Assembly: GCA_020632265.1 (NCBI GenBank)
Contig: JACKFW010000001.1
Location: forward strand, 218,981-282,980
Source: Pseudomonadales bacterium
Lineage (GTDB): Bacteria; Patescibacteriota; Microgenomatia; UBA1400; PJMF01
Reading direction: 5' to 3'
DNA length: 64,000 nucleotides
Position 1 is the first letter of the stretch. Each line of letters starts with the position of its first letter. The notes beneath the pieces were generated by a model. It ran no database searches, was not told the DNA's origin, and was given only the letters and a program-made list of their open reading frames with translations. Positions 11,521-57,457 of the stretch are shown here, piece after piece. The translations under genes were made by a program, and so were the position numbers.

Positions 11521-11535
11521 CAAAGAAATTAAAAA

Positions 11536-13108: not shown

Positions 13109-13109
13109 T

Positions 13110-15559: not shown

Positions 15560-15945
15560 AAAATAACCATACTAAATCATCATCTGGACATATTTTAATT
15601 ACTTTGTTAATTGTAATGGTGGTGGGAATGATAATTAGTACTGCAGCAATTTCTTGGGTAATTGACAATACAATTGGCAACTCACAAACTCACCAAGGAC
15701 TTACTGCTCTAACTGCTGCCGAAAGTGGTATTGAAAATGCTATGCTATTACTACTAAGAAATCCTGATTATTCTGGAGAGGTATTGGAAATTGCAGACGC
15801 AACAGTTACCGTTACTGTTTCTGGATCAGATGAGAAGACTATTATTTCTCAATCAATCGAAAACAATTACTCAAGAAAAATTGAAGTAACTGCGACATAT
15901 ATCAATAATATTTTAACTATCACTTCTTGGAAAGAATCGATTTAA
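15556..15945 (+). CDS. Minor pilin-like protein (PilX-like, atypical signal).
   Basis: SSGHILITLLIVMVVGMIISTAAI has G followed by a hydrophobic helix but no Glu at +5. Operon position is between the pilins. Confidence 0.4.
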   Translation: MKNNHTKSSSGHILITLLIVMVVGMIISTAAISWVIDNTIGNSQTHQGLTALTAAESGIENAMLLLLRNPDYSGEVLEIADATVTVTVSGSDEKTIISQSIENNYSRKIEVTATYINNILTITSWKESI

Positions 15946-15949
15946 AAAC

Positions 15950-17065: not shown

Positions 17066-17149
17066 CATATATCTACTTGACCTATAAACAAAAAATGATC
17101 TATTATTAATGTATATATAGTAAATTATTAATTATAAGAAGGTCAACTT

Positions 17150-17611
17150 ATGAAACTGCCATCATTAAAAAAACTAAATAAAGGTTTCACCCTTATTGAG
17201 CTATTAGTTGTTATAGGTATTCTAGCTATTTTATTAGCTATAGTTCTTATTGCTATTAATCCGGCTAGACAATTTGCTCAAGCAAATAATACTCAGCGTC
17301 GAAGTGATGTTAATGCTATCCTAAATGCAATACATCAATATGCAGCTGATAACTCGGGTGCACTTCCGGCAGGTATAACAACTACCGCTACAAATGTATC
17401 TGACACAGGTGCTGATATTTGTGCATTACTAGTTTCTGATTATTTAGCAGCATTGCCAGTTGATCCAACTGCCGGAGAACCCGTTGATGAGGCAGGATGT
17501 GCACTCGAATATGACACAGGATACACAGTCGTTACCAGTGCAACAAATAATAGAGTCACTGTAACTGCTCCATCAGCAGAGTTGGGTGATGTTATTTCTG
17601 CAACAAGATAA
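17150..17611 (+). CDS. pilA: Major type IV pilin (PilA-like).
   Basis: MKLPSLKKLNKGFTLIELLVVIGILAILLAIVLIAINP is a classic type IVa prepilin signal plus alpha1 helix. SD AAGAAGG lies upstream. Length 153 aa. Confidence 0.8.
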   Translation: MKLPSLKKLNKGFTLIELLVVIGILAILLAIVLIAINPARQFAQANNTQRRSDVNAILNAIHQYAADNSGALPAGITTTATNVSDTGADICALLVSDYLAALPVDPTAGEPVDEAGCALEYDTGYTVVTSATNNRVTVTAPSAELGDVISATR

Positions 17612-17715: not shown

Positions 17716-18066
17716 TTAATATCTACCGCCACCTCTATTGTTATTACCTTGGCTATCATTTCTTCTGTTGTTGTAACCACCAGAATTGTCTCTAGGAACT
17801 CTTGGTCTTGCAACGTTAACAACGATTTCTCTGCCTTCAAGTACGTAACCATTAAGTGCCTTTGTGGCAGCCTCTGCTTCTTCTACAGTATCGTAAGTAA
17901 TGAAAGCAATACCTTTTGATCGACCACTCATGCGGTCAACAATCAATACTCCATCAACAACTTTTCCATATTGAGAAAAGAGATTTACTATTGTTTCTTC
18001 CGTTGTACTAAACGGAATGCTCCCAACGAAAAGTTTCTTTGGGTTTTCTTGTGGTGCATCTTGCAT
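17716..18066 (-). CDS. RRM-domain RNA-binding protein with a Gly/Asn/Arg-rich C-terminal tail.
   Basis: RNP-1-like KGIAFITY and RNP-2-like KLFVGSIPF. The tail is ...GGYNNRRNDSQGNNNRGGGRY. SD AAAGGAGG lies upstream on the minus strand. Confidence 0.8.
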   Translation of the reverse strand: MQDAPQENPKKLFVGSIPFSTTEETIVNLFSQYGKVVDGVLIVDRMSGRSKGIAFITYDTVEEAEAATKALNGYVLEGREIVVNVARPRVPRDNSGGYNNRRNDSQGNNNRGGGRY

Positions 18067-19649: not shown

Positions 19650-20762
19650 TTATATTACTTCTAAAATACCGGTATACATTCCCATTGAACAAGAATAAGT
19701 AAATTTACCTCTTTTTGTTGGAGTAAACATAAAAGTTTGTGAATCAGTAGGTTTCAAAAATACAGAAATCCCAAATTCTTTAAAAATAAAAGCCGATGCA
19801 CAAGAATATGTATCATTTGTTGAAACTGTTAATTCGACGGGAACACCAGATTTAACAACTACATAGTTTGGTGAATAGCCAGAACTCAAGGCTTTAATAT
19901 TAATTTTTTGTACTCCATTAGTAATTGAAGCTAAATCTAAGGAATTGGCAAATCTGTCATCCGAAAAAAAATAGGTAATTGGGCTAACTAGCTTGTTTAT
20001 TGTAAATGATGAATCCATAACTATTAAAACTCCATTAATGCTATAAATCGCCATACCAATTAATACAACTGCTGCAAATTTCATAAATTTTTCATGCCAA
20101 CCTTCTGAAAGTTTAGCTGTAGCTATACCAATAATTGCAAATAATGGGGTAGTGCCTAAAATAAATGAGAACATAATTAGAGCACCTAAAAAGGGATTAC
20201 CGGAACTTATTGCAAGAACTTCCATTGCCTGAGTAATTCCACAAGGAATAAATACTGTTAAAAAACCTAGTAAAGCGGGTGCGAAAAGTGCCTTGCTTTT
20301 TGTAGAATTTCTCACAATTTTTTGAATAAATTTTGGTGGCTGAAAAACCATATATCTAAATATTGGATGAACATCTAATAAATTCATGGCTGTACCAAAC
20401 ATAAATAGTGCAGTGAAAACTTGAAAAACTAGTCTTACCCCCAAGCTTAAGGATAATGTTGATCCCAGCCATCCAAGTAAAAAACCTAAAATAACGTGTG
20501 CAACAACCTTTGTCAATAAAAACATACCCACAGGCATCCAATCGAGATCATCAAAAGATTTTAAAGAAAAATTGCTTTGTTGTAATGTTTTTGCATATTT
20601 CTTTCGCTTGTTTTTTTTGTCTTTATCCTTATCTGAAATTGACTCATCAAATTCTCGATCCTTTTGATTGGCAATAATGCTTGTCAATAATCCACCTTGC
20701 ATAGCCAAACAAGACAAACCCCCGGTAGTTAAACCAGTTAAAAATATGACCCATAAATTCAT
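19650..20762 (-). CDS. DsbD_2/UreH-like two-Cys membrane permease fused to a C-terminal cupredoxin-like domain.
   Basis: N-terminus FLTGLTTGGLSCLAMQGGLL. Second Cys in a TM helix: FIPCGITQAMEVL. The C-terminal approximately 90 aa, NYVVVKSGVPVELTVSTNDTYSCASAFIFKEFGISVFLKP...FTYSCSMGMYTGILEVI, has a cupredoxin-like strand pattern with Cys/Met candidate ligands. Confidence 0.45.
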   Translation of the reverse strand: MNLWVIFLTGLTTGGLSCLAMQGGLLTSIIANQKDREFDESISDKDKDKKNKRKKYAKTLQQSNFSLKSFDDLDWMPVGMFLLTKVVAHVILGFLLGWLGSTLSLSLGVRLVFQVFTALFMFGTAMNLLDVHPIFRYMVFQPPKFIQKIVRNSTKSKALFAPALLGFLTVFIPCGITQAMEVLAISSGNPFLGALIMFSFILGTTPLFAIIGIATAKLSEGWHEKFMKFAAVVLIGMAIYSINGVLIVMDSSFTINKLVSPITYFFSDDRFANSLDLASITNGVQKINIKALSSGYSPNYVVVKSGVPVELTVSTNDTYSCASAFIFKEFGISVFLKPTDSQTFMFTPTKRGKFTYSCSMGMYTGILEVI

Positions 20763-20822
20763 AATACTATTCCATTGTAAACTTATTAATTTATATTATC
20801 TTAACACTCTTTGTACTACGCA

Positions 20823-23093
20823 TTATAGTTTAATTTTTCTAAGCCTTAAAGCATTAGATACAACTGAAAGACTTGAAAATGCCATAGCAGCTGATGCTAA
20901 CATAGGATTCAATTGAATGCCCCAAATTGGATAAAGTGCCCCCATTGCTACTGGAATTAACAAAATGTTGTAACCAAATGCCCAAGCTAAATTTTGTTTT
21001 ATATTTTGCATGGTTAATTTGGATAAGTGAATGGCCTGTGGCACCAATGAGATATCACTTCGAAGTAAAGTTATTCCCGCAGATTCAATGGCAACATCTG
21101 TTCCCAAGCCCATTGCTATCCCAACATCGGCTGCAGCAAGAGCTGGAGCATCATTAATACCATCTCCTATGAACCCAACTACATCGCCATTTTTTCTCAA
21201 TTCTTTTACTTTCTGCTCTTTATCATCAGGTAATACTTCAGCAATATACTCTGAAAGTCCAATAGAATTTGCAATGTATTTGGCAGTTCCAGCGTTATCA
21301 CCCGTCATCATAAGTACTTTAACACCGATATCCGACAACTTCTTGATAACATTTCTTGATTCCTCTTTAACCGCATCAGCTATACCCAAAGACAATAAGT
21401 GTATATTATTTACTGATATGTAGGTAACTGTATGTCCATTATTCTGCCAATCTTGTGATTTTTGATCTAGCTTCTTATTTGGTTCAGTACCATTTTCTAC
21501 TAAAAACTTACGATTTCCTACTAAAACATCCTTACCGTCAACAACTCCCATAACTCCTTTTCCCGGAATATCTTTAAAATTTTTAACCTCAAATTTTTGA
21601 CCTTTATTCTTTGCAAAATATTTTACAACTGCATCAGCTAAAGGATGATGTGACTTTGTTTCAACAGACATAATTAAAGATTGTAAATAGGTCTTAAAGT
21701 TCAAATTATCTGGTAAAGTCCAATTAAAAGCTTTTTCGATTAAAGCTAAATCATCTGAAAATTCTGCTTTTTGAACCTCTGGTTTTCCTTTCGTTAAAGT
21801 TCCAGTTTTATCGAAAATTATTGTGGTGATCTTATTAGCTGTCTCCAGTGCCTCAGCATTCTTGATTAAAATACCAATTTGTGCCCCTTTACCAATACCA
21901 ACCATTAAAGATGTGGGTGTCGCCAAACCTAAGGCACATGGACAAGCAATAATTAAAACTGAAATCATACTAACAAGCGCTCTAATTAATTTTGGTTCAG
22001 GACCAAAGAAAAACCATATCCCAAAAGTAAGAATTGATAGCACTATTACTACTGGAACAAAATATGATGACACAACGTCTACTAATTTTTGAATTGGAGG
22101 TCTTGAACCTTGAGCTGATTTAACTAATTGAATAATGTTTGCTAACATAGTATCGGAACCAATTTTCTCAGTTTTCATTTCAAAAGACCCAGATTTATTT
22201 ATAGTCGATCCAATAACTCGATCTCCCTTAATTTTTTCAACTGGCAAACTCTCACCAGTAACCATACTTTCATCTAAATAACTTGTTCCAGAAAACACTA
22301 CTCCGTCAACTGGAACTTTCTCACCTGGCTTAACCAATAAAATGTCTCCAACTTTAAGCTTAGAAATTTGGACATCTTTGACAGTTTTCCCAATAACTAA
22401 ATGTGCAACCTTTGCTTGCAGTCCAATTAACTTTTTGATTGCTAAAGAGGTTTGGCCTTTTGCTCTAGTTTCAAAGTATTTACCAAGTAATATCAGGGTA
22501 ATAATTGTTGCTGATGTTTCAAAATATACATGTGTCTGAATTCCATTACTTTCAAATGAATTCTTAAATATCAAAACTATGATCGAAAAAAAATAAGCCA
22601 CGGAAGTGCCAAGTACGATTAATGTATCCATGTTGGTAGTTTTATTTAGAAAAGCAGACCAAGCACTTTTATAATAATTTTTACCAACCCAAAACTGAAT
22701 TGGTGTTGCAAGTAAAAACATCACCCATGGATTCATTAAAATTTTTGGTGAAAACGGAATCATTGATCCAATCAATAAAAATATGGTTAAAAAAACACTA
22801 AGAAACAATCTATTTTTAAGACTTGCTATTTCAACATTTCTTTCTTTCTCCGCCAAATCGGTGGTGTCTTCAACTCCAATATGAGCTTGATAACCTAGGG
22901 ACTCAACAGCTTTAGATGCTAGAAAAGCATTAAATTTATGTTCATTAATTACGAGAGTGGCTTGCTCATTAGCATAATTTACATTTGATGAGATTACTCC
23001 GTGAGTTTTAGTTAGCTTTCTTTGAACGTTAGAAGCACAACTTGCGCAATGCATACCTGAAACATGAAATGAGATGGTTTTATTGCCCGACAT
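20823..23093 (-). CDS. copA: Copper-translocating P1B-type ATPase CopA.
   Basis: N-terminal [14 protein letters not shown]. Membrane CPC motif [18 protein letters not shown] and [10 protein letters not shown] motifs. Length 756 aa. Confidence 0.9.
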
Positions 23094-23445
23094 ATTTTAA
23101 TGGCTTTTTTTTAAATTTTTCTAAACATCCAGACGCGCAAAAATAATAAATAATATTCATGTATTTATATCTAAATCCTGCTGTTTTTGGTGAAACGCGC
23201 ATTTTGCACACTGGATCGTGTGTTAAAGGAACTAAATCTTTCATATTATAAATAAATTTGTCACTATCTATTTGATTTGAAAATTTATCAAAAATTATTG
23301 CTCTACTAAGATCATTAATTTTAACGAATTTTTTTTCACCAAGTTTATAAAATACCTGTTTGCCATTTTTTTGTTGTACCACAATGCCAGCATCGCGAAG
23401 AATTTGTAAATGTTGACTAACATTAGCCTGAGGTAAATCTAGCAT
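23080..23445 (-). CDS. ArsR/SmtB-family winged-HTH regulator fused to a C-terminal YHS/TRASH metal-binding domain. The annotated ATG at 23445 falls inside the HTH. The reading frame stays open upstream to 23622 and encodes the rest of the ArsR domain, but has no ATG, GTG or TTG.
   Basis: The recognition helix and wing are [28 protein letters not shown]. The YHS motif is [35 protein letters not shown]. My upstream in-frame translation gives ...IFKLQEEILKALAHSRRLEIINLLRESELNVSEIYT before the Met. The gene overlaps the copA start by 14 nt. Confidence 0.6.
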
Positions 23446-36508: not shown

Positions 36509-38029
36509 GTGAAAAACAATACTATGGGTAACTTTGTAAGAAATTATTTTAAAATTCATCCCGTCAGAACTCAGCGTGCTCTAGAGATAATTCCAGGTCT
36601 CTTTTCCTGGGGACTAATTCTTTTTCCTTTTTGGGGATCACTAATTATACCCGATATAGTTGCTTATTATATTATTGCATTTGCAATCTATTGGCTATAT
36701 AAATCATTGCTTTTATCAGTCCTTGCAATTGCAGCTCACTTCAAAATTCAAGCCGCGAGTAAATTTGACTGGATTGCTGATATAAAAAAAGATTATCCAG
36801 ATACCTGGAACAAAATTCACCACTTAATTATTATCCCAACTTACAAAGAGCCTTTGACCACATTAAAACGAACCTTAAAAGCATTAAAAAATCAAAAAAT
36901 CCCTCTAAAAAATATTCATGTGATGTTATCATTTGAAGAGCGCGAAGGATCAGATGCTAGAGAAAAATCTAAATTGCTCTTAGAAGAATTCCGGGGAATT
37001 TTTGGAAACATGTGGACCACCTACCATCCTGATATCTTAGGAGAGGTAAAAGGCAAATCGTCCAATACTTGTTGGGGCGCTAAACAAGCAAAAAAAATTC
37101 TGATTGATGAACAAGGTCTTGATTTAAATATGGTCACAATTACTAGCGAAGACGCTGATGCGGTATTTCATCCCAATTATTTTGCAGCAGTTACTCAGGA
37201 CTTCTTGTTCGTAGAAGAACCTTACAACAAAATCTGGCAAGGAGCAGTAGTTTTTTATAATAACATTTGGAAAGTACCATCGGCAGTTAGAGTGCTTTCT
37301 TCTATGTATTCGGTAATTCAAATGCATTTACTAATGCGCTCAGATAGATTAATCAACTTTTCAACCTACACGACATCACTCAAGCACGTTGTGGACATTG
37401 ACTATTGGGATACTGATGTTATTCCCGAAGATTATCGACTATTTTTTAAATCTTATTTTGCTAAAAAAGGTAATTTTGATGTCAGACCAATATTTTTACC
37501 AATTCTTTCTGACGCCGCTGAATCTCATAATACCTGGTCCACTTATAATAATCTCTATCAACAACTTACTAGATGGGCTTGGGGCGTAAGTGATGATGCC
37601 TACATAATAAAACAATATGTTAAGGCCACTGAAATTCCTTTTTGGGATAAAACTATTAGAGTTTTTAAAACTATTCAAGATCATTTTTTATGGCCAGTGA
37701 ATTGGTTTGCAGTAACTATCTCAGCATTTTTACCTCCATTACTCAATCCAGTATTTAATAGAACAGTCTTGGGCAAAACTCTTCCTCAAGTTACTTCAAC
37801 ATTACTCACACTTTCATTAGTCTCAATGATCGTCGTATTTGTAATTGATGCAATGAATCGACCGCAAAGACCAAACCGATACAATCCACTTTCATATATC
37901 ATGCAACCACTGGAATTTTTACTTTTACCAATCATTGGCTTCTTCTTTTCTGCATTACCAGGAATAGATGCTCATACTAGACTTATGTTTGGAAAATATA
38001 TTGAATATAAGGTTACTGAAAAAGTATAG
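36509..38029 (+). CDS. Membrane-embedded processive family-2 glycosyltransferase (cellulose/chitin/hyaluronan-synthase-like).
   Basis: IIIPTYKEP (GT2 start), TSEDADAVFHPNYF (DxD region), QQLTRWAWG (QxxRW processivity motif), and N- and C-terminal TM helices. Confidence 0.65.
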   Translation: MKNNTMGNFVRNYFKIHPVRTQRALEIIPGLFSWGLILFPFWGSLIIPDIVAYYIIAFAIYWLYKSLLLSVLAIAAHFKIQAASKFDWIADIKKDYPDTWNKIHHLIIIPTYKEPLTTLKRTLKALKNQKIPLKNIHVMLSFEEREGSDAREKSKLLLEEFRGIFGNMWTTYHPDILGEVKGKSSNTCWGAKQAKKILIDEQGLDLNMVTITSEDADAVFHPNYFAAVTQDFLFVEEPYNKIWQGAVVFYNNIWKVPSAVRVLSSMYSVIQMHLLMRSDRLINFSTYTTSLKHVVDIDYWDTDVIPEDYRLFFKSYFAKKGNFDVRPIFLPILSDAAESHNTWSTYNNLYQQLTRWAWGVSDDAYIIKQYVKATEIPFWDKTIRVFKTIQDHFLWPVNWFAVTISAFLPPLLNPVFNRTVLGKTLPQVTSTLLTLSLVSMIVVFVIDAMNRPQRPNRYNPLSYIMQPLEFLLLPIIGFFFSALPGIDAHTRLMFGKYIEYKVTEKV

Positions 38030-38092
38030 TTGATGCAATTCTTTTCAAGATAACGTATACTTATTTTATAGTAATTAAGTCAAACAAATTCT

Positions 38093-39739
38093 GTGATAAA
38101 ACTCAAAAATCTTATTAAAAAAATAATTAAAACTGATAAAGTTTTAGATAAACAAACACCAATATTTTTGCTTTCAATTTTAGTATTAGTTTTAAGAATT
38201 CCAAATTTATTTGAACCATATTGGTATGGAGACGAAGGAATATATTTAACTATTGGGCAAAGCCTTAATAAGGGGGCAAAACTTTACTCTGAAATTATCG
38301 ATCATAAAACTCCGATTATCTATTATTTAGCACGAGTTCAAACACAACTTAATTTTCGTCTTCTAAACATAGGATGGATGATTTTTACAACCATAGCATT
38401 TTACTATTTTGCAAAAAAATTATTTAAGTCTGTAAAACAGACAACTTTAGCAACATTTATTTTTATCATTTTTACCTCCTTACCTTGGCTTGAAGGAAAT
38501 ATTCCCAATGGAGAATTGTTTGTTTTGGGTTTTGTGATGACTGGAGCAATAATAATCTCAAATACCGATTATTTTAAAGATTTTTTAAAATCTAATTTGA
38601 AGATTAAAGCTAATTGGCATAGTGTTCTAAAAAATTCAATAAACCTGATCACAGCTGGATTTTTTCTGGGATTAGGAATATTAACCAAAATCCCCGCAAT
38701 TTTAGACCTCGCCGTATTTTTTACCATCGGATACTTTACATTTACAAATAATCTTTTAGTTAACAGTTTTTCAAACAATTTAAAATTATTGGGCAAAAAA
38801 ATAGTTGAAATTGGTTTGCTTTCTCTTGGTGTATTAATTCCAATTTTAATTTCAATCATTTATTTTGTTTCCATAGGATCTGGACAAGAATACCTAGATT
38901 TTGGTCTTTTATATAATTTTAGATATGCTTCAAGTTGGCAATTACCATTTTCAAATCAATTATTAATATTTGCCTTTACCCTTCATGGAAAATTCATAAT
39001 CCTAACTGGAATCATATTATTTATTACTTTACTAAAAAAATACTTTAAACCTCATGTTCAATTTATTTTAAGTTGGTTTGGTTTATCACTTTTTGCTTCC
39101 TTGCTTTCAAATAGACCATACCCACATTATTTTATACAATTAGTTCCACCTCTTTCCTTACTTTTAACTTTAATTATTAAAAATAAATTTCTAATTTTAA
39201 AAAACTTCTTAAAATCCAAAAGACCAGAAATTAATGTAATTTTTCTCAATTTATTTACTGAGTCATTTTTATTAGTTGGGTTTATTGTAGTGATGATTTT
39301 ATTAAATTTTGCACCATATTCGACATCAAAATATTATTTAAATTGGTACAAATTAGTTACAAATAAAATTAACAATCAAGAATATAGACAAACATTTGAT
39401 TATCTAATGACTGATAATTACCTTGCGGCTGAAATTATTAAAGCTTCAGGATCAAAAAACATGTTTATTTGGGGTACAAACCCCATGCTATATGCCCTAA
39501 CTCAGACTCAACCAACTGGAAGATTTACTGTTTCATTTCACATAAAAGATTTTGATGCTTTTGGAGAAACTGTTAGAGATGTAATCAAAAAAGAACCAAC
39601 TTTTATAGTAGTAATGAAGAATGAGGATAATAACTTTCCTATATTTAAATCATATTTAAACCAATATTATCTGCCAAACAACCTTCAATTTGAGCACTTC
39701 ACTCTCTGGAAAAGAAAATATGATAGCCACAACAATTAA
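38093..39739 (+). CDS. GT-C fold glycosyltransferase (ArnT/PMT-like, polyprenyl-phosphate-sugar dependent).
   Basis: The first extracytoplasmic loop YWYGDEGIYLTIGQSL has a DE motif. Twelve or more TM segments over 548 aa. Confidence 0.5.
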   Translation: MIKLKNLIKKIIKTDKVLDKQTPIFLLSILVLVLRIPNLFEPYWYGDEGIYLTIGQSLNKGAKLYSEIIDHKTPIIYYLARVQTQLNFRLLNIGWMIFTTIAFYYFAKKLFKSVKQTTLATFIFIIFTSLPWLEGNIPNGELFVLGFVMTGAIIISNTDYFKDFLKSNLKIKANWHSVLKNSINLITAGFFLGLGILTKIPAILDLAVFFTIGYFTFTNNLLVNSFSNNLKLLGKKIVEIGLLSLGVLIPILISIIYFVSIGSGQEYLDFGLLYNFRYASSWQLPFSNQLLIFAFTLHGKFIILTGIILFITLLKKYFKPHVQFILSWFGLSLFASLLSNRPYPHYFIQLVPPLSLLLTLIIKNKFLILKNFLKSKRPEINVIFLNLFTESFLLVGFIVVMILLNFAPYSTSKYYLNWYKLVTNKINNQEYRQTFDYLMTDNYLAAEIIKASGSKNMFIWGTNPMLYALTQTQPTGRFTVSFHIKDFDAFGETVRDVIKKEPTFIVVMKNEDNNFPIFKSYLNQYYLPNNLQFEHFTLWKRKYDSHNN

Positions 39740-40085
39740 CCCAATAAAAAATAGTTTTGTACCAGAAATTGCAAAAAAGCCTATCTATTTATCATGGATT
39801 GTGGCATTATCTATCTCATTAATTTCGGTAATATTTTATTTTATTTCCCAACCACAGCTTCCAATCTTCTATTCACTTGCAACAAAAAGAGATCAATTAG
39901 CACCAAAAGAATTTATATTTGTTTTTCCGGTAGTATCCTTATGGATGAACGCCTCGCATTTATTCGTCATTAAAATTTTAAAAAACTACTCTCTTTTAAT
40001 GCTGAAACTTTTTGCAATAACCACCGCATTTTTACAAATTATCTTCCTGATATCATTACTAAGAATTATTCTGATAACCATTTGA
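39690..40085 (+). CDS. Small membrane protein (3-4 TM) between glycosyltransferases. Probably starts at the internal Met near 39720.
   Basis: Hydrophobic ORF. It overlaps the preceding gene and resembles the small subunits found in some polyprenyl-glycosyltransferase operons. Confidence 0.3.
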   Translation: MSTSLSGKENMIATTINPIKNSFVPEIAKKPIYLSWIVALSISLISVIFYFISQPQLPIFYSLATKRDQLAPKEFIFVFPVVSLWMNASHLFVIKILKNYSLLMLKLFAITTAFLQIIFLISLLRIILITI

Positions 40086-40086
40086 T

Positions 40087-41142
40087 ATGATTCCATTTCT
40101 AATTGCATTATTATCAAGCTTTATTATTACTCCGATAATTATTAGTATTTATACCAAAAAAAATTGGTTAGATAATCCTATTCAAACTATTCATGTAAAA
40201 AAAACTCACTCAAAGCCTATTCCTAGAGGAGGAGGTTTAGTAATTTTTTTTGGGATTCTTGTAACATCTTTGATATTTTTACAATTTGATCAGCATTTAA
40301 TTGCAATTTTTATAGGAGCATTTTTATTAACTCTAGTTGGTACGTTGGATGATATTTATGATCTGCATCCAGCAATTAGGCTAGCTACCGGGCTAGTGGC
40401 GTCCCTCATTGTAGTTGGTTCTGGTATTGGAGTAGCATATATTACAAATCCTTTTGGACCTGGAGTAATTCATTTAAATCAACCTCAAATTTTACTAAAT
40501 TTATTTGGTACAACAAAATCAATTTGGGTATTAGCTGATATTTTTGCTTTATTTTTTATCATCTGGAATATGAATATTGTTAATTGGTCAAAAGGAGTTG
40601 ATGGACAAATGCCAGGATTTGTTAGTATCGCATTAATTTTTATTGGAATATTGTCAACGAGGTTTATAGATGATCCAACACAATTTAACACAGCCTATCT
40701 ATCTTTTATTGTTGCAGGAGCATTTGCTGGATTATTAATTTGGAATTGGTACCCTCAACGAATTTTGCCCGGTTATGGAGCTGGTTCATTAGCAGGATAC
40801 TTCCTTGCAATTCTAGCCATTCTTTCGGGTGCAAAAATTGCCACAGTTTTTATGGTATTAGGTTTACCTACTGCAGATGCAATTTTTACAATTATGAGAA
40901 GAATAATCGCTGGCAAATCACCTCTTTGGGGTGATCGTGGTCACATGCATCACAAAATGCTGGATGTTTTAAAATGGGGACGACGCAGAATTGCAGTTTT
41001 TTATTGGGCAAGTAGTTTTTTTCTTGGATTTTTATCGCTGTACTTGAATACTTCTGGAAAGTTAGTTACAATGTCAATAGTTTTTATTTTAGTTTTTGGC
41101 TTTTTAATTTGGGTTAAGATAAATAAAAAAGGATTAAGATAA
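40087..41142 (+). CDS. Polyprenyl-phosphate N-acetylhexosamine-1-phosphate transferase (WecA/MraY/WbcO family, GT4).
   Basis: NMNIVNWSKGVDGQMPG resembles NxxNxxDGxDG. C-terminal GDRGHMHHKMLDV resembles the DRxHxHH motif of WecA/TagO. Ten to eleven TM segments. Confidence 0.75.
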   Translation: MIPFLIALLSSFIITPIIISIYTKKNWLDNPIQTIHVKKTHSKPIPRGGGLVIFFGILVTSLIFLQFDQHLIAIFIGAFLLTLVGTLDDIYDLHPAIRLATGLVASLIVVGSGIGVAYITNPFGPGVIHLNQPQILLNLFGTTKSIWVLADIFALFFIIWNMNIVNWSKGVDGQMPGFVSIALIFIGILSTRFIDDPTQFNTAYLSFIVAGAFAGLLIWNWYPQRILPGYGAGSLAGYFLAILAILSGAKIATVFMVLGLPTADAIFTIMRRIIAGKSPLWGDRGHMHHKMLDVLKWGRRRIAVFYWASSFFLGFLSLYLNTSGKLVTMSIVFILVFGFLIWVKINKKGLR

Positions 41143-41156
41143 AAATTATTCATAAT

Positions 41157-42137
41157 ATGATCAGCATTCCTTTAAAAAAACCCTTTAATCAATCATTCGT
41201 ATATCTTGTTGCTAAAACCGCTAGACCACAACAATGGATAAAAAATCTAGCACTTTACGCAGCGTTAGTATTTTCTGGATTTTTTTTCTACCATCCGGCA
41301 GGAGAACCTTCATATTTTATGACGGTATCTTATGCATTTGTAGTTTTTAGTATTCTCACTTCAAGTATTTATTTTATAAATGATATTGTTGATTTTGAAT
41401 CTGACAAGCAACATCCTTTCAAAAAGAAAAGACCCATTGCGTCTGAATTGCTTAGCAGAAGTTCAGCCCTGAAGATTTCTTTACTTGGTCTATTTTTAGT
41501 TTTTATTTTATCAACTGGTTTAGCGCTATTTTTCAGAATCTTACTTCTAGCATATTTTTTACTTCAAATATTGTATTCCAAAAAACTCAAACATATTCCT
41601 ATCATTGATGTTGTTTCCATTGCCTCAGGGTTTTTGATAAGAATATATGCAGGAGCGGTTGTCATTAATCTTCATATGAGTGTTTGGTTTTTACTCACAG
41701 TGGTTTCTGCTTCATTATTTTTAGCAGTTGGAAAAAGACAGAGCGAAAGAACTTTGTTGGGAAATGAAAGTAATATTGGAACGACTCGACAATCTCTCAA
41801 ACGCTATAGCCAAAGACTTCTTGACCAGTATACTGGAATGTTTGCAAATGCTACTTGGCTCACTTATGCTCTCTTTGCATTTCAAAATGAAATCAGTGCA
41901 CCTAGACAAAAAATAGAATTAATTTACACATTCTTGCCCAAAGCACTTCACTCTCAAAAACTTTTAATGCTCACTATACCATTTGTAATTTTTGGCGTCA
42001 TGAGATATCTACAACTTGTCTACGAAAACAACCAAGGAGAATCACCTGAAAAAGTACTTTTAAACGATAAACCACTTTTAATCACGGTTGGATTATTTGG
42101 TGCAATAGTAATGTTTGTTACCTATATCCTAACTTAA
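41157..42137 (+). CDS. UbiA-family prenyl/phosphoribosyl transferase, decaprenyl-phosphate phosphoribosyltransferase (DPPR synthase)-like.
   Basis: YFINDIVDFESDKQHPFKKKRPIAS has the Asp-rich motif NDxxDxExD followed by HPxKxxRPIA, as in the Rv3806c-type subgroup. Eight to nine TM segments. Confidence 0.55.
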   Translation: MISIPLKKPFNQSFVYLVAKTARPQQWIKNLALYAALVFSGFFFYHPAGEPSYFMTVSYAFVVFSILTSSIYFINDIVDFESDKQHPFKKKRPIASELLSRSSALKISLLGLFLVFILSTGLALFFRILLLAYFLLQILYSKKLKHIPIIDVVSIASGFLIRIYAGAVVINLHMSVWFLLTVVSASLFLAVGKRQSERTLLGNESNIGTTRQSLKRYSQRLLDQYTGMFANATWLTYALFAFQNEISAPRQKIELIYTFLPKALHSQKLLMLTIPFVIFGVMRYLQLVYENNQGESPEKVLLNDKPLLITVGLFGAIVMFVTYILT

Positions 42138-42140
42138 ATT

Positions 42141-43493
42141 ATGAAGAAATTTGTTTCAAAGTACTACCCTCAATTATTACTGATAATTTTAGCCTTCTCA
42201 TTTTTTACTCGAATTTATAATCTTCACTTACCAGAAAAATATGTCTTTGATGAAGTCTACCATGCTGTGACAGCTAAATTAATTGCCGACAACAATCCAA
42301 TGGCATTTGAATGGAATAACACACCACCAGAACCCAATACTGCCATAGATTGGTTGCATCCTCCAATTGCAAAATATACTCAAGCTCTATCAATGAATTT
42401 ACTTTCAAAGAATTCATTTGGCTGGAGATTTAGCTCGGCAATCTTTGGAGTAATTGCAATTTTTTTAACAGCCAAACTTGCATATAATCTTTTTCATTCT
42501 AAATCGGTTGCATTAATTGCGGCACTTATAACATCATTGGATGGTTTGGTCCTAACAATGTCTAGAATTGCTATGAATGACATCCATGTAACAGTGTTCA
42601 TCCTCATGACTTTAAACTTCTATATTATTTATCTAAATACAAAGAGAACCGATAAAAAATTTCTTTTCTTTTCTGCAGCTTTTTCAGGAATAGCCATGGG
42701 CACAAAATGGTCTGGATTTTTTGCCTTAATAATAATCGGATTTTTTGAAACCATTAATTTACTTATAACTTTTTTTCATCGAGAAAAAATGGAAAAATTA
42801 AGTACAAAAATTCGCACATTTTTTAAAGAATTTTTATTTTTATTTACTTTGTTAATTATTTTACCCGGAACAATTTACATACTTTCATATAGTCAAATGT
42901 TTTTACAAGGAAAGAACTTCAATCATTTTATTGGATTGCATAAGAATATCTGGTCATATCAAACATCTCTTGTTGCTACCCACCCCGCACAATCAAAACC
43001 TATTGAATGGTTCTTAAACACTAAACCTGTTTGGATTTATGCTAATTGGCAAACAAATAAACGAGCAGATATATATGCTGTCGGTAATCCTATTCTTTTC
43101 TGGATTTCAGACATCTTTGTATTTATTAGTTTAATTTACAGTATATTTATTATTAAACACTATTATCAATCTAAAAAAATTGATTCAAAAAACTTAAATT
43201 TTTTACATTTAATAATTATGTATTTCGCTGTCTGGATTCCTTGGCAGTTTTCTCCCAGAATAATGTTCTTCTATCACTATCTCCCAGCAGTACCATTGCT
43301 TTGTATAAATACAGCCTACTGGCTAAATAAAATGATGCAAAAATCAAAGAATCAAAAAAAACTAGCAATATTAATTATCATGAGTTTTCTGATTACATTT
43401 ATAATTTGGTATCCTCATTGGACAGGCATATTTGTATCAGATGAGCTAAAAGAGTCCTTGTATTTTGCGCTTGATTCTTGGCAGCAAAAATAA
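42141..43493 (+). CDS. GT-C fold glycosyltransferase, GT39 (PMT-like)/ArnT-like.
   Basis: Loop-1 motif YVFDEVYHAV, as in the PMT DE motif FDEVHF. Polytopic, 450 aa. Confidence 0.55.
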   Translation: MKKFVSKYYPQLLLIILAFSFFTRIYNLHLPEKYVFDEVYHAVTAKLIADNNPMAFEWNNTPPEPNTAIDWLHPPIAKYTQALSMNLLSKNSFGWRFSSAIFGVIAIFLTAKLAYNLFHSKSVALIAALITSLDGLVLTMSRIAMNDIHVTVFILMTLNFYIIYLNTKRTDKKFLFFSAAFSGIAMGTKWSGFFALIIIGFFETINLLITFFHREKMEKLSTKIRTFFKEFLFLFTLLIILPGTIYILSYSQMFLQGKNFNHFIGLHKNIWSYQTSLVATHPAQSKPIEWFLNTKPVWIYANWQTNKRADIYAVGNPILFWISDIFVFISLIYSIFIIKHYYQSKKIDSKNLNFLHLIIMYFAVWIPWQFSPRIMFFYHYLPAVPLLCINTAYWLNKMMQKSKNQKKLAILIIMSFLITFIIWYPHWTGIFVSDELKESLYFALDSWQQK

Positions 43494-43501
43494 ATTAATT
43501 T

Positions 43502-44200
43502 TTAATTCCAATATTCAGGATATTCATTTAGAATATTATTAATTTCTTCGTTATCTGCATTTGGAATTAATGGTAAATAATTGTGCAAATGAATTTTATC
43601 CTGAGCAAATAATATCACAACTTTATTAATAAATTTTTGAATTATTTTAACATTATCGATATTTTTAATACAAATTAGATTATCAATCAAAGAATTTGAA
43701 TGTTGGCTACTTAAATCAGATTGCCGATTTATTCTAATATTGAGATTTCCTAAATTAAATTTTTTTTGGAAGAACATTTTTTTGGCAACTGTTACACTTT
43801 TTATAGCTTCTAAAGGAAGTAAAGTAATTTTATAACTAAGCGGAAACTTCGTAGTAATATTGATAATTTTGTCAGAACTAATAATACATATATTCTTCAT
43901 CCAAATAGATTTCAACCACCACCATCCCAAAAATAAAATAAGCGAAGAAATCGCTGTGATAAATAGATTCACTGCTTCTAAATTTTTGATTATAAAATAT
44001 TTACTCAGTACCTTCACAAAATAATATCCAAAATTTAAAAATATAAACGAGAAAAAAAACAATAATGCTCTTTTTAAATTCAAATAAGCTTTGCTTTGCC
44101 TAAATACATATAAGATTGACTCATTTTCATATTGATAGGGAAAATTATAACTGTATGGAAAACTAAATGATTCAGTTAAAATAATATTTTTCTTTTTCAT
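43502..44200 (-). CDS. Membrane protein with two N-terminal TM helices and a possible bacterial PH-like (YdbS/YdbT-type) domain.
   Basis: Hydrophobic segments LLFFFSFIFLNFGYYFV and ITAISSLILFLGWWWL are followed by a soluble domain. The start is 1 nt after the stop of the helicase-nuclease gene. Confidence 0.3.
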   Translation of the reverse strand: MKKKNIILTESFSFPYSYNFPYQYENESILYVFRQSKAYLNLKRALLFFFSFIFLNFGYYFVKVLSKYFIIKNLEAVNLFITAISSLILFLGWWWLKSIWMKNICIISSDKIINITTKFPLSYKITLLPLEAIKSVTVAKKMFFQKKFNLGNLNIRINRQSDLSSQHSNSLIDNLICIKNIDNVKIIQKFINKVVILFAQDKIHLHNYLPLIPNADNEEINNILNEYPEYWN

Positions 44201-53740: not shown

Positions 53741-54760
53741 TTACAACTTTCTAAATTTTCTTCTCAGCATTTCAAAATAATAAGTTAAATGATAAAGAGG
53801 TGATAAAGAAATATCATGAGAAGGCAAATATTTAACTTCTTCGCCTCCAAATCCACGCTTGAATAATGAAACTCCCGTAAAACGATGATTTAGCTCGTTT
53901 TCAGGCGCAATTCCCCAAAAATTATACTTTATACACCCCCTTCTTTTAGCCTCTTTAATTGCAGCCCACTGACAAGCGTAACTACCTGCATACTTTCCAT
54001 TTTCAGGAGTAGAAATACCGTAATGATATACGGCTTCTTTATTATAAAAAATTATAAATGCTGTTGCTAACAATCTATTATTCAACTTTGAATGTATCAT
54101 CAGCACCTGATCATCTTCCAAAAATGAGATAAATTGATTATATAAAAAATCATATGTAAACGGTACAAACCCATGTTTTTTAGCAAGCTTGATTTGAAGA
54201 TCATAAAATTCTTTAATATCATTCTTATCTTTGGAAAAATTGATACTGATGCCTTCTCTATCAGATTTATTGATTGAATAACGCGTATTTTTCCTCATTT
54301 GCTTTAAAATTTCATCTTCAGAATTTTCTAAATTTAGTTGTAGAGTTAAATCTGCAGTCAAATGCATTTGTGAGGTTTTTGCACCAATTTTAGCAACAGT
54401 ATTTCTAAGTTCAATTGAATCTATTGCTTGAGGTCTAAATCTAATAAAGATAGCTCCTTTTTCTTTGGCAATTAATTTGATTTTTTCAAATACAAGATTG
54501 ATAAGCTCTTGATTGGTCCAATCAATTAATGGACCACCTGCAATTGAGATGTAAGTACCCCTTTTGGCTTTTTCACAAACAAGTAAAGCCATTCCCAAAG
54601 TAACGTTATTTTTTTGAATCAAAAGCCTGACAACTATCTTTCCCATTCTTTCTTGAAACAAACTCCAGTTCCAAGATTGCAAAAAATTTGCGTTCTTAAA
54701 TAATAAAATATTGCTTTCCCAAACATTTTTATCAGTAATATATAAAAAAGTAATATTCAT
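53741..54760 (-). CDS. FemAB-family (FemX-like) peptidoglycan-precursor aminoacyl/peptidyl transferase (GNAT-fold pair).
   Basis: N-terminal ...NANFLQSWNWSLF is typical of the FemABX start. Length 339 aa and operon context. Confidence 0.6.
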   Translation of the reverse strand: MNITFLYITDKNVWESNILLFKNANFLQSWNWSLFQERMGKIVVRLLIQKNNVTLGMALLVCEKAKRGTYISIAGGPLIDWTNQELINLVFEKIKLIAKEKGAIFIRFRPQAIDSIELRNTVAKIGAKTSQMHLTADLTLQLNLENSEDEILKQMRKNTRYSINKSDREGISINFSKDKNDIKEFYDLQIKLAKKHGFVPFTYDFLYNQFISFLEDDQVLMIHSKLNNRLLATAFIIFYNKEAVYHYGISTPENGKYAGSYACQWAAIKEAKRRGCIKYNFWGIAPENELNHRFTGVSLFKRGFGGEEVKYLPSHDISLSPLYHLTYYFEMLRRKFRKL

Positions 54761-54762
54761 AT

Positions 54763-55983
54763 TTAAAAATCGTTCAATGTTTTTATAATTTGGTTTGCCT
54801 GTTTGATTGATAAATTGATATGGGTTGGTAGATTTATAATCTCGCTTGAAAGTTTCTCAGCATTAGGGGCCAGTCCTTTCGTATAAAATGAGTCGCATTG
54901 ATATCTCCCACAGTCTACAGGATTTCGATACCATCTATCAGATAAAAATATTTTATTTTTCTTCATTAATTGAATAAATTTTTCAACTTCCTGAATTCTA
55001 ATTGAGAACCTAAGATTACTACCAAATAAGACATCCTCTTTTGAATTTATTATGCTAATTTTTTTATTAACAATTTTCTCAAGATACAAATTTGCAATTT
55101 TTCTTCGATGAATTATTTGCGATTCTAAATTACCTAAGGAAACTAGTGCTAAAGTGGAATAAGCTGGAGACATAGTACAAATATTTTTTATTTGACTAAT
55201 TGTTGGTGAGGTTATTAACTTTAAGGTTTTGGCTAATTTAATTATTAATTTTCCAGCCCAAACGTCATATAAATTGCGACCTAAATATGTCACTATTGGA
55301 TAAATTAAATCAATAAATAAATATTTTTTTGTTTGCTGAGATATTATGATTTCCTGAATTACTTTTAATTGATTATTCGTGAGTTCTTTAAAAACAACAG
55401 CTCCACCGGAAATTGAATCGATGACTTTATCTCTTCCAAATGAAAAAATTACCACATCGGCATTGTATCCCAATGACTGACCCAAACTATCTCTACCTCC
55501 AATTGATTGTGCCAAATCTTCAATCAATAATAAATTGTTTTTTTTACACCAAGCACTGATTTTTCCGATTTCTGCTGGAATTCCTAAGCTATGCTGAACT
55601 AACACCACCTTCGAATCTGGATTAGACTTAAAACTTGCTTGTAAAGTTTGAACGGTTAAATTTGTTGAATTTTCTGCAATATCCACATAAACTGGTTCAC
55701 CCCCGCCTCTCTTAATTCCTTCTTCAACGGCATAACAAGTAAAGGCTTGAGTTAAAATTTTTATGCGATCTTGAGATTTTTTTTGAGCTGATAAAACTCG
55801 AATGGAGAATTCAATTGCATCACGACCTTTATAAAATAAAAATGATTTGCCATGATAATTATCTTCTAAATATTGATTCAATTTTTGATGATCCTCGCTT
55901 GCGGAAACAAAAATCTGACTCAATGCGGTCAGTGCAAATTTAAATGTATAATTCGAACCCAAACTATTAAAAATTGATTTCAT
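54763..55983 (-). CDS. DegT/DnrJ/EryC1/StrS-family PLP-dependent sugar aminotransferase-like protein.
   Basis: KILTQAFTCYAVEEGIKRGGGEPVYVDI, LLLIEDLAQSIGG, and a Lys in VVIFSFGRDKVIDSISGGAVVF (compare SFHxxKxxxxGEGG). Confidence 0.6.
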   Translation of the reverse strand: MKSIFNSLGSNYTFKFALTALSQIFVSASEDHQKLNQYLEDNYHGKSFLFYKGRDAIEFSIRVLSAQKKSQDRIKILTQAFTCYAVEEGIKRGGGEPVYVDIAENSTNLTVQTLQASFKSNPDSKVVLVQHSLGIPAEIGKISAWCKKNNLLLIEDLAQSIGGRDSLGQSLGYNADVVIFSFGRDKVIDSISGGAVVFKELTNNQLKVIQEIIISQQTKKYLFIDLIYPIVTYLGRNLYDVWAGKLIIKLAKTLKLITSPTISQIKNICTMSPAYSTLALVSLGNLESQIIHRRKIANLYLEKIVNKKISIINSKEDVLFGSNLRFSIRIQEVEKFIQLMKKNKIFLSDRWYRNPVDCGRYQCDSFYTKGLAPNAEKLSSEIINLPTHINLSIKQANQIIKTLNDF

Positions 55984-55984
55984 A

Positions 55985-57457
55985 TTATTTTAAATATTCT
56001 TGCACCCATCCAGGCATTCTTCCTTCAATTATAACAACAAAGTTCTTATCTAAACTTAATAGATACTTAATAATTTTATCTTGATCACTTAATAGATTGT
56101 CACCAAATACTTGCGAAAATTCATTAATACCAGATAACCCTACAAATAAAACTTTATCAAAAGTTTTTTTAGACAATACAGCAAGCTCTCGATGAATTAT
56201 TGATGATTCTATTCCTAAATCAACAATTCCCGATGTAATTAAAACTTTTTTAGGTAAATTTAGTTCATTAGCTAGATCAATCACAGCACTAAATCCCTTT
56301 GGGTTAGTTGTTCCGCCATCATCAATAATTAAAAATTCATTTTTTGAAACAAATGAAAAGATAAATTTATCATCAGGAACAAAACTAGATAATGCATCAA
56401 CAATTTCCGAATCGGTCATATTAAATTTTTTTGCTATTAGTATCGCTATTTTAATTATTTCTAAATAATGTATTCCAATAAATTTTGTATTAACTTGCTG
56501 TCCATTCCAAACAAAATGTAACCTTCCAGATTTATTTAATCCAGTTTTTAAAATTTGAAGACCGCTAACCTCATTATCAGTTTTAATTATTTTTAAATCA
56601 TCTCTCTTTGAAGCCTGAATAATCTTTAATACGCCCATATCACTTCCATTTACAAATACTAGAGATTCTGGCGCCAAGGCTCGTAGTAGTTCGGATTTAG
56701 CTTGAATAATTGATTCCAGACTGCCAAATAGTCCTAAATGTTGACTTGTCAATCCAGTAATGACTGCTAAATTGGGCTTAAACCAATTTGCAAGTAGTCT
56801 AATTTCACCTATTTTATAAGCTGCGTACTCTATAATTGCGATTTTTTGATTTGAAAAATTATCATTAATGCTTTTAGCAACTGAAAATTTAGTGTTGTAA
56901 GATTTCGGTGTTTTAAAAACAGAATATTTTTTTCCTAAAACATGAGCTAAAAGAATTTTTGTGGAAGTTTTTCCATAACTGCCAGTAATACCAATAATAA
57001 TTGGTTTAACTTTATCAATTTTTCTTTTGGCTTTGAATAATTCGAATAATACTCTAATATAAACTAAAAATGAGGTTGGAGTTATTGCTAATATGACTAA
57101 AAGTGGCACAGCTAATAGAATAATAAATAAACTAGAAAGCAAATAAAATAATAGCGTTAAACCGTTAATTTGAAATGCAACTGCAACCAATAAATATACA
57201 ATTATCAACATTTCGACAAATATTATTGAACTAATAATTAAAATTCTGGGTGTAATTTTAGGACGCTTTAACCCAAACTTAGAAAAATCTTTTTTTTGTG
57301 GCAGTAATCGCAAAAATTCCCTTTGGCCTTCTGGAGTTTTCAAAAATAAAATAATTCGATCTAAACGATATTCTTTTTGTTGCACAATCGACAACCATCG
57401 CAATAATCTAATTCCATAAGATGAAAAAAATGCAAATAAAACTAATAAAGATTTCAT
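55985..57457 (-). CDS. MurF-like Mur ligase. The usual N-terminal domain is replaced by approximately 130 aa with 3 predicted TM helices.
   Basis: P-loop IIGITGSYGKTSTK. The central and C-terminal domains align with E. coli MurF over KPNLAVITGLTSQHLGLFGSLESIIQAKSEL and IIDDGGTTNPKGFSAVIDL. N-terminal hydrophobic segments include ILIISSIIFVEMLIIVYLLVAVAF and LFYLLSSLFIILLAVPLLVILAI. Confidence 0.65.
   Translation of the reverse strand: MKSLLVLFAFFSSYGIRLLRWLSIVQQKEYRLDRIILFLKTPEGQREFLRLLPQKKDFSKFGLKRPKITPRILIISSIIFVEMLIIVYLLVAVAFQINGLTLLFYLLSSLFIILLAVPLLVILAITPTSFLVYIRVLFELFKAKRKIDKVKPIIIGITGSYGKTSTKILLAHVLGKKYSVFKTPKSYNTKFSVAKSINDNFSNQKIAIIEYAAYKIGEIRLLANWFKPNLAVITGLTSQHLGLFGSLESIIQAKSELLRALAPESLVFVNGSDMGVLKIIQASKRDDLKIIKTDNEVSGLQILKTGLNKSGRLHFVWNGQQVNTKFIGIHYLEIIKIAILIAKKFNMTDSEIVDALSSFVPDDKFIFSFVSKNEFLIIDDGGTTNPKGFSAVIDLANELNLPKKVLITSGIVDLGIESSIIHRELAVLSKKTFDKVLFVGLSGINEFSQVFGDNLLSDQDKIIKYLLSLDKNFVVIIEGRMPGWVQEYLK

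Follow-up and report, generated by a model that had tools for sequence, protein, structure and literature searches.

What is made by six membrane-protein genes that stand in a row on one strand of a patescibacterial contig, and do they act together? The genes occupy positions 36509-43493 of the window analyzed here, which is the whole 64-kb stretch of contig JACKFW010000001.1 (64,000 nucleotides, G+C content ~31%). With moderate confidence, we read them as a cassette for a conserved envelope-glycan system of Microgenomates-type Patescibacteria, in which a lipid-linked pentofuranose donor would be combined with glycosyltransferases of the GT-C fold. An open reading frame (ORF) listing with translations revealed six nearly gapless ORFs on the + strand, at exactly the positions where a preliminary description of this DNA had placed six co-directional membrane-protein genes. 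They are listed here with the short names used below:

36509-38029, + strand: GT2, predicted family 2 glycosyltransferase, 506 aa from a GTG start
38093-39739, + strand: X548, the first GT-C, a predicted divergent GT-C glycosyltransferase, 548 aa
39690-40085, + strand: S131, a small protein with three predicted transmembrane (TM) helices, 131 aa
40087-41142, + strand: the initiator, a WecA/MraY-type enzyme assigned to the polyprenyl-phosphate phosphosugar transferase (PNPT) superfamily, 351 aa
41157-42137, + strand: UbiA-superfamily enzyme, 326 aa
42141-43493, + strand: PMT450, the second GT-C, a predicted PMT-type enzyme, 450 aa

Successive genes are separated by 63 nt, an overlap, 1 nt, 14 nt, and 3 nt. 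Public gene calls on identical contigs start GT2 at ATG 36524 (501 aa) and S131 at ATG 39720 (121 aa), and these are probably the true starts. The motifs quoted in the preliminary description, namely QQLTRWAWG, PYWYGDEGIY, GDRGHMHHK, NDIVDFESDKQHPFKKKRPIA, and FDEVYH, were all found in the translations.

The product of 41157-42137 is, with strong support from its sequence, a UbiA-superfamily polyprenyl-phosphate 5-phosphoribosyltransferase, i.e. a homologue of Rv3806c, of decaprenyl-phosphoryl-5-phosphoribose (DPPR) synthase, and of the polyprenyl-phosphoribose synthases (PPPRS). It scored 67 bits on Pfam UbiA and 207.3, 203.1, and 152 bits on the NCBIfam decaprenyl-phosphate phosphoribosyltransferase models NF008977 (cut-off 234), NF008978 (cut-off 207), and NF008976 (cut-off 474). 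The generic model NF006088 "UbiA family prenyltransferase" gave 141 bits, and the NCBIfam models named for digeranylgeranylglyceryl phosphate synthase, heme O synthase, 4-hydroxybenzoate, and other prenyltransferases gave 43 bits or less. The sole PDB matches were the Rv3806c structures 8j8j and 8j8k (phmmer, E = 6e-34, 232 aligned residues). Furthermore, the stretch with the NDxxDxxxD motif and the following HPxKxxRPIA motif, NDIVDFESDKQHPFKKKRPIA, aligns to NDVRDVEADREHPTKRFRPIA of Rv3806c. The residues of Rv3806c that bind 5-phosphoribosyl 1-pyrophosphate (PRPP) and Mg were named in a cryo-EM study, which noted that other UbiA enzymes do not share the phosphoribose-binding sites (PMC10994848). 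When the PRPP-binding residues were mapped by alignment, R22, K28, Y70, N73, D77, K87, R90, Q135, Y138, and K143 proved identical in the cassette enzyme and Y157 was replaced by Phe; hence, 10 of 11 are identical, and the Y157F change occurs in some mycobacteria as well (PMC10994848). The cassette protein carries no extra domain. Homologues bear the public name decaprenyl-phosphate phosphoribosyltransferase (NCBI, JGI), and the family comprises 1043 clusters at 50% identity (E ≤ 1e-30). With these scores, Rv3806c as the only structural relative, and the PRPP-binding residues kept, the enzyme falls into the decaprenyl-phosphate phosphoribosyltransferase subgroup to which it had been assigned, and not among the quinone- or chlorophyll-type prenyltransferases, which would have contradicted the preliminary description.

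A search with one genome per species yielded 358 related loci, of which the best 80, all from Patescibacteria, were analyzed. Synteny was counted only in loci whose flank reaches the expected position, and the same order and strand were required. Under these conditions, the initiator gene directly preceded UbiA in 75 of 75 loci, X548 was present in 67 of 70, and GT2 in 51 of 61; PMT450 followed directly downstream of UbiA in 41 of 73. An ORF with the motif QxxIPLFYSL, as in S131, stood between the GT-C and initiator genes in 57 of 69 loci. The arrangement is not due to chance, and its order is conserved although the housekeeping neighbors MetRS (methionyl-tRNA synthetase) and TatD are only ~40-58% identical (MetRS 38-68%). 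GT2 is the most conserved gene of the region, with 63-84% identity as compared to the MetRS range just given, which suggests a surface glycopolymer that is part of the core equipment and not a variable antigen.

PMT450 forms the variable tail of the cassette. Where it is missing, UbiA is followed by PTPS_related, GT87-like, DUF2298, or PMT_2 genes, which are GT-C-like, or by a sugar nucleotidyltransferase gene. In locus L084, whose UbiA is 45% identical, the row GT2, GT-C, small protein, initiator, and UbiA persists in a different neighborhood, and UbiA genes at 36-40% identity have two to four genes of PMT type or for DUF2298 proteins next to them. UbiA thus keeps GT-C partners across contexts, both in loci lacking PMT450 and in distant relatives, which argues for the pentofuranose reading. 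Relatives of the UbiA enzyme with 58-79% identity are named Pacebacteria, Woesebacteria, Microgenomates, or "Patescibacteria group"; the named more distant ones belong to Patescibacteria, Shapirobacteria, and one Lentisphaerota. An apparent fusion of initiator and UbiA in L008 was rejected, an internal stop being present.

Many metagenome-assembled genomes of this lineage, including the source of the window, carry the NCBI labels "Pseudomonadales bacterium" or "Vitreimonas sp."; their gene content and closest relatives show these mislabeled records to be Patescibacteria. For the window, the type IV pilus, sortase, FemAB, and Mur ligase genes agree with an origin from a Microgenomates-type patescibacterium. 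Two of the more distant loci are described here in their own right. In L086 (2350-12564), UbiA lies amid three PMT/PMT_2 genes, a gene for a DUF2298 protein, and one for a LytR_cpsA_psr (LCP) wall-polymer ligase, which suggests that the product is attached to the cell wall in that lineage. In L088 (822-2407), the UbiA homologue is directly followed by a separate HAD/PNK3P-type phosphatase gene, a stand-alone form of a phosphatase function missing beside the cassette; its surroundings are of non-cassette type, with GT1 genes, Bac_transf, and a pyruvyl transferase.

X548 is predicted, from profile comparison and a structure model, to be a divergent glycosyltransferase of the GT-C fold. The protein itself, which has the locus tag H6772_01200 in its NCBI record, matched nothing in Pfam or NCBIfam; 8 of 34 members of its family matched Pfam PMT (best 4.7e-7). 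An hhalign comparison of the X548 and PMT450 families gave a probability of 87% (E = 3.9e-6) and placed PYWYGDEGIY over PEKYVFDEVYH with the DE motifs aligned. Because searches of the PDB with the family profiles of X548 and GT2 returned nothing meaningful, structures were predicted for both with AlphaFold2. The X548 model reached a mean predicted local distance difference test (pLDDT) value of 93, and its first 19 PDB matches in Foldseek were all GT-C enzymes (AglB, STT3, ArnT, AftA, DPY19, Pmt1/2/4, ALG3). It has ~11 TM helices. PYWYGDEGIY is an invariant motif of its first outer loop, and the C-terminal ~140 aa form an alpha/beta domain, which is predicted to be extracellular because the positively charged N-terminus would lie inside. 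X548 appears to represent a previously unclassified GT-C family.

PMT450 is, judged by its Pfam domains, a PMT-type (GT39-like) GT-C with an FDEVYH motif in loop 1. It scored 81.2 bits on PMT, 81.4 on PMT_4TMC, and 52.4 on PMT_2, each above the cut-off, and 85 bits on the NCBIfam protein O-mannosyltransferase model, which has a cut-off of 800. The Pfam scan reported no MIR domain in PMT450; bacterial PMTs generally lack MIR domains. Both GT-C candidates named in the preliminary description were thus confirmed, X548 by profile comparison and structure model and PMT450 by Pfam. The concern that they might score as generic transporters only was removed: for X548, family hits, hhalign, model, and Foldseek matches exclude a transporter, and for PMT450 the Pfam domains do likewise.

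GT2 is predicted to be membrane-integrated, with a fold like that of cellulose and hyaluronan synthases. It contains the motifs IPTYKEP, SEDADA, PEDYR, and QQLTRWAWG, so that the DxD, ED, and QxxRW signatures are all present, and YKEP, EDAD, PEDYR, and QQLTRW are invariant in the family, which has a mean column identity of 74-81%. Pfam Glyco_trans_2_3 gave just 24.9 bits, below the cut-off of 27, and NCBIfam gave no match. The AlphaFold2 model (pLDDT 79, predicted template-modeling score 0.80) found the hyaluronan synthases (HAS) of Chlorella virus and Xenopus as top Foldseek matches, followed by BcsA. Together with QQLTRWAWG, these matches agree with the class that had been proposed for GT2; processive action and the sugar of this enzyme are both things that we infer.

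The initiator is, by its sequence, a clear member of the WecA/MraY (PNPT) superfamily of polyprenyl-phosphate phosphosugar transferases, as described before: it carries GDRGHMHHK and scored 77.9 bits on Pfam Glycos_transf_4 (cut-off 27). It gave 59 bits on the WecA model TIGR02380 (cut-off 326) and 53 and 35 bits on the archaeal MraY and MraY models, all far below their cut-offs, and it weakly matched the MraY of C. bolteae (5jnq). LDD (GTLDDIYD), NWSKGVDGQ, PGYGAGS, and WGDRGHxHH are kept across 73 sequences of the family. HIHH is a signature of WecA, and GDRGHMHHK is of this HxHH type and conserved in the family. The canonical NxxNxxDGxDGL motif is replaced family-wide by NIVNWSKGVDGQ, with K where D is usual, and (F/M)GDxGS is replaced family-wide by PGYGAGS, which lacks the D. 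With these acidic residues missing, the sugar-phosphate substrate may be unusual, and the non-canonical motifs may point to an unusual donor or mechanism. The small membrane protein noted earlier is present as well. S131 has its three predicted TM helices and, in the family alignment, a conserved loop motif QPx(I/L)P(L/I)FYSL; no recognizable family was found for it, with weak DUF1648 matches in just 5 of 37 members. It is a candidate for an accessory subunit or a lipid-sugar flippase.

From these enzymes, the following route is proposed. At the cytoplasmic face, the UbiA enzyme, for which the sequence support is strong, would transfer ribose-5-phosphate from PRPP to polyprenyl phosphate. The resulting polyprenyl-phosphoryl-ribose-5-phosphate would be dephosphorylated by an enzyme encoded outside the cassette, and polyprenyl-phospho-ribose would be flipped across the membrane, with S131 as no more than a candidate flippase. 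Outside the membrane, X548 and possibly PMT450 would use polyprenyl-phospho-ribofuranose as donor and add pentofuranose residues onto a surface polymer or surface proteins. The acceptor polymer would most likely be started by the initiator on the same lipid carrier and be elongated and exported by GT2 in a synthase-dependent route. Such a route reportedly has a precedent in the WecA and WbbF scheme of Salmonella O:54.

The nature of the pentose was approached through the genes that could modify it. Neither the window nor the genes recurring in the flanks (±8 kb) of the 80 loci yielded DprE1 (FAD_binding_4/ALO) or DprE2 (a short-chain dehydrogenase/reductase, SDR), and the same search gave no SDR epimerase of the ORF13 kind. 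Therefore, the default donor would be polyprenyl-phospho-ribofuranose and not polyprenyl-phospho-arabinofuranose, and ribofuranose would be the default sugar of the cassette. The analogy to arabinan and galactan synthesis drawn in the preliminary description lacks support at this point, no enzyme for its key step having been found in the window or the flanks.

A closely related scheme has been demonstrated by experiment in Citrobacter youngae, where a UbiA-type PPPRS, a flippase, and a GT-C of family GT136 add α-ribofuranose to a polymer outside the cytoplasm and epimerases encoded in the cluster turn the donor into xylofuranose or arabinofuranose (Kelly et al., PNAS 2024, PMC11127046). The same study reported that such three-component pentofuranose systems are widespread and that GT-C enzymes can show promiscuity towards pentose donors (PMC11127046). 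Taken together with the large UbiA family, this work means that the principle is known and is not confined to Actinobacteria, so the earlier statement that such a system would be unusual outside Actinobacteria is outdated. Of the preliminary interpretation as a whole, the enzyme families stood, and the claimed novelty and the arabinan/galactan analogy did not.

The C. youngae O1/O2 system consists of ORF15 (PPPRS-PRP), ORF14 (a MATE flippase), and ORF12 (GT136) (PMC11127046). Like it, the cassette has a PPPRS beside a GT-C that spans the membrane with ~11 TM helices, forms helices in its first outer loop, and carries an additional domain at the C-terminus, and ribofuranose would be the default where an epimerase is absent; here, X548 lies ~1.4 kb upstream of UbiA and PMT450 directly downstream. 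Unlike it, the cassette has neither a fused HAD phosphatase domain nor a MATE gene, it includes an invariably adjoining PNPT initiator and an uncharacterized 3-TM protein, and it is conserved across many related genomes and thus no serotype-variable add-on.

The M. tuberculosis pathway of Rv3806c, which leads through decaprenyl-phosphoryl-arabinose to arabinan, shares the UbiA fold, the NDxxDxxxD...HPxKxxRPIA motif, the PRPP and Mg residues, adjoining GT-C genes, and a WecA-type initiator in the logic of its wall polymer. The identity of the UbiA enzyme to Rv3806c is moderate, however, and unlike in mycobacteria, DprE1/DprE2, an Rv3807c-type phosphatase, and a GtrA-like Rv3789 were not found near the cassette; its GT2 is HAS/BcsA-like and not of GlfT type, and its host, a patescibacterium, has a genome of roughly 1 Mb. 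Pilin O-arabinosylation of the Pseudomonas aeruginosa PA7 type depends on a PPPRS, DprE1/E2 homologues, and the GT-C TfpW (summarized in PMC11127046). The cassette resembles this system in the pairing of a UbiA-type PPPRS with a GT-C, and type IV pilus genes occur in the window too; it differs in that no DprE1/E2 homologues were found and that the pilus genes are ~20 kb away and unlinked to it.

Two single enzymes were compared likewise. GT2 shares with class I hyaluronan synthases and BcsA the predicted layout, in which a GT-A domain and interface helices stand between two TM helices at the N-terminus and further TM helices at the C-terminus, as well as the DxD, ED, and QxxRW motifs; it differs from them in having just 11-16% sequence identity and in scoring below the Pfam gathering cut-off. 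PMT450 shares with the bacterial protein O-mannosyltransferases (GT39, e.g. actinobacterial Pmt) the DE motif of loop 1 as well as the domains PMT and PMT_4TMC, but it adjoins a phosphoribosyltransferase and not a polyprenyl-phosphate mannose synthase, and its 85 bits compare with a cut-off of 800. In its composition, the cassette departs from the known scheme by the always-adjoining PNPT enzyme, the HAS-like GT2, the unclassified GT-C, and the new small membrane protein, and no flippase, phosphatase, or epimerase of a recognizable kind was found with it.

The type IV pilus-like cluster of the window lies at 9829-17611 (+ strand). It encodes a PilB-type ATPase (T2SSE), a PilC-type platform protein (T2SSF), three pilins with an N-methyl motif, a 634-aa LVIVD-repeat protein, and a LytR_C-domain protein. 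An O-glycosyltransferase of the PMT type might use its pilins as acceptors.

Several observations weigh against a lipid-linked pentofuranose system built from all six genes. The UbiA enzyme stays below the NCBIfam equivalog cut-offs, with the two best scores just below. Two acidic residues usual in WecA and MraY are absent from the initiator, and the classical donor of PMT-family enzymes is polyprenyl-phospho-mannose and not a pentose. MATE, GtrA, and SMR flippases were found neither in the window nor among the recurrent flank genes of the 80 loci. No PAP2 or HAD-PRP 5-phosphatase acting on DPPR adjoins the cassette; PAP2 phosphatases were also absent from the whole window and the recurrent flank genes, and the only HAD-type protein of the window (1503-2204) is encoded ~35 kb away and unlinked to the cassette. 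In L085, GT2 stays beside MetRS, 6.6 kb from UbiA, and it is missing upstream in about ten Woesebacteria-like loci. Finally, the unrelated housekeeping genes MetRS, TatD, and UvrD share the synteny of the clade. Gene order alone is therefore no proof of a shared pathway, and it is synteny alone that points to one pathway for all six genes.

If the cassette works as proposed, the sugar may still differ. Arabinofuranose or another epimer could be transferred, provided that polyprenyl-phospho-ribose is epimerized, as it is in mycobacteria and in the glycosylation of Pseudomonas pilins, by DprE1/DprE2-like or SDR/flavoprotein enzymes encoded elsewhere in the genome, of whose roughly 1.08 Mb the window covers 64 kb. 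GT-C enzymes may accept more than one pentose donor (PMC11127046), and the UbiA relatives at 36-40% identity each have a flavoprotein gene within 2-7 kb. We nevertheless consider this version unlikely: FAD_binding_4/ALO proteins, SDR epimerases, and homologues of that flavoprotein are all absent from the window and the 80 loci (±8 kb), and the systems described so far have their epimerase genes inside the cluster. The flavoproteins themselves (L085:8703-9932, L086:1104-2387, and L087:5636-6901) are orthologous proteins of 410-427 aa with DAO, Amino_oxidase, and NAD_binding_8 domains and 38-44% mutual identity. A homologue was found neither in the window nor in the 80 closer loci, and comparison with the PDB gave just generic flavoprotein matches. 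They are candidates for an oxidase in pentose epimerization beside the distant UbiA enzymes.

Equally to be weighed is the view that the six genes form a mosaic and serve different functions in the envelope. GT2 would then synthesize an exopolysaccharide of its own, the initiator would either start a different polymer or represent a divergent MraY, and only UbiA and one GT-C would be coupled, e.g. for the O-glycosylation of pilins or surface proteins. Such a mosaic would fit the equal synteny of MetRS, TatD, and UvrD, the separation of GT2 from UbiA in L085 and in L053-type loci, the occurrence of PMT450 in just 41 of 73 loci, and the pilus cluster in the same window; moreover, synthases of the HAS/BcsA type need no lipid-linked primer. 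The core of GT-C, small protein, initiator, and UbiA, however, stays together in 67-75 of 70-75 loci and recurs in the different neighborhood of L084, and cassette genes overlap or are spaced by 1-14 nt. For the initiator, the score on the WecA model exceeds those on the MraY models, and no gene of the MraY family adjoins the Mur ligase/FemAB cluster in another part of the window. On balance, a mosaic of this kind appears rather improbable to us.

The least tenable explanation, an ordinary prenyltransferase of quinone, heme O, archaeal-lipid, or chlorophyll metabolism that would make the pentose reading wrong, can draw on the automatic JGI label "4-hydroxybenzoate polyprenyltransferase" of several homologues and on the scores slightly below the equivalog cut-offs, but it is highly improbable and already close to refuted, since the enzyme reached 150-207 bits on DPPR-synthase models as compared to 43 or less on the named alternatives and kept 10 of 11 phosphoribose-binding residues not conserved elsewhere in UbiA enzymes, and Patescibacteria of this Microgenomates type are not known to have a respiratory quinone pathway.

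The pentofuranose reading can be extended to a bolder proposal, which we regard as doubtful when all of its elements are taken jointly. According to this proposal, the product of the cassette would be a secondary wall polymer resembling arabinogalactan, present throughout the clade and probably essential. The non-canonical PNPT enzyme would prime this polymer, and the lineage-specific HAS-like synthase would polymerize and export it. Ribofuranose, or ribofuranose-5-phosphate in the absence of a phosphatase, would be added outside by the unclassified GT-C family, and S131 would be the polyprenyl-phospho-pentose flippase or a GT-C subunit.

The envelopes of Patescibacteria, also known as the candidate phyla radiation, are almost unstudied, and the surface of these bacteria mediates attachment to host cells. 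The cassette carries the scheme leading from PRPP through a polyprenyl-phospho-pentofuranose to a GT-C beyond Actinobacteria and the O antigens of Gram-negative bacteria to a third and very different lineage. Since the annotation "decaprenyl-phosphate phosphoribosyltransferase" is already public, the advance lies in the system and its distribution and not in a new enzyme class. We found no paper linking the pentofuranose scheme with Patescibacteria or the candidate phyla radiation; a paper on the Lipocone superfamily, which mentions both UbiA and Patescibacteria, proved unrelated to the cassette.

The surroundings of the cassette were examined as well. Upstream, a TrpR-like gene, MetRS, and TatD lie on the same strand. 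MetRS and TatD, which we take to be an old housekeeping gene pair (cf. B. subtilis metS-yabD), were considered as members and set aside; in L084, the cassette is intact although MetRS is no longer beside it. Downstream follows a gene convergent to the cassette:

43502-44200, - strand: predicted membrane protein, 232 aa

Its product matches no Pfam or NCBIfam family and has recognizable homologues in just 4 of the 80 related loci. No tRNA genes or Rfam families were found in the window, and scans for promoters and terminators were uninformative, their results in this AT-rich DNA hardly differing from those for shuffled sequence.

Other genes of the window may be mentioned briefly. A FemAB-family transferase, a DegT/DnrJ-type aminotransferase, and a Mur-ligase-family protein are encoded in a row at 53741-57457 (- strand), where an aminotransferase within a peptidoglycan-type gene group is unusual. 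The window also encodes a sortase. A metal-handling group at 19650-23445 (- strand) includes a protein in which a DsbD_2 membrane domain is joined to a cupredoxin domain; its other members are a P-type ATPase for heavy metals, which has an HMA domain, and a small protein of the ArsR-HTH/YHS type. Additionally, a 755-aa protein with a C-terminal vWA-TerF-like domain is encoded at 2449-4716 (+ strand), and a small RRM_1 RNA-binding protein at 17716-18066 (- strand).

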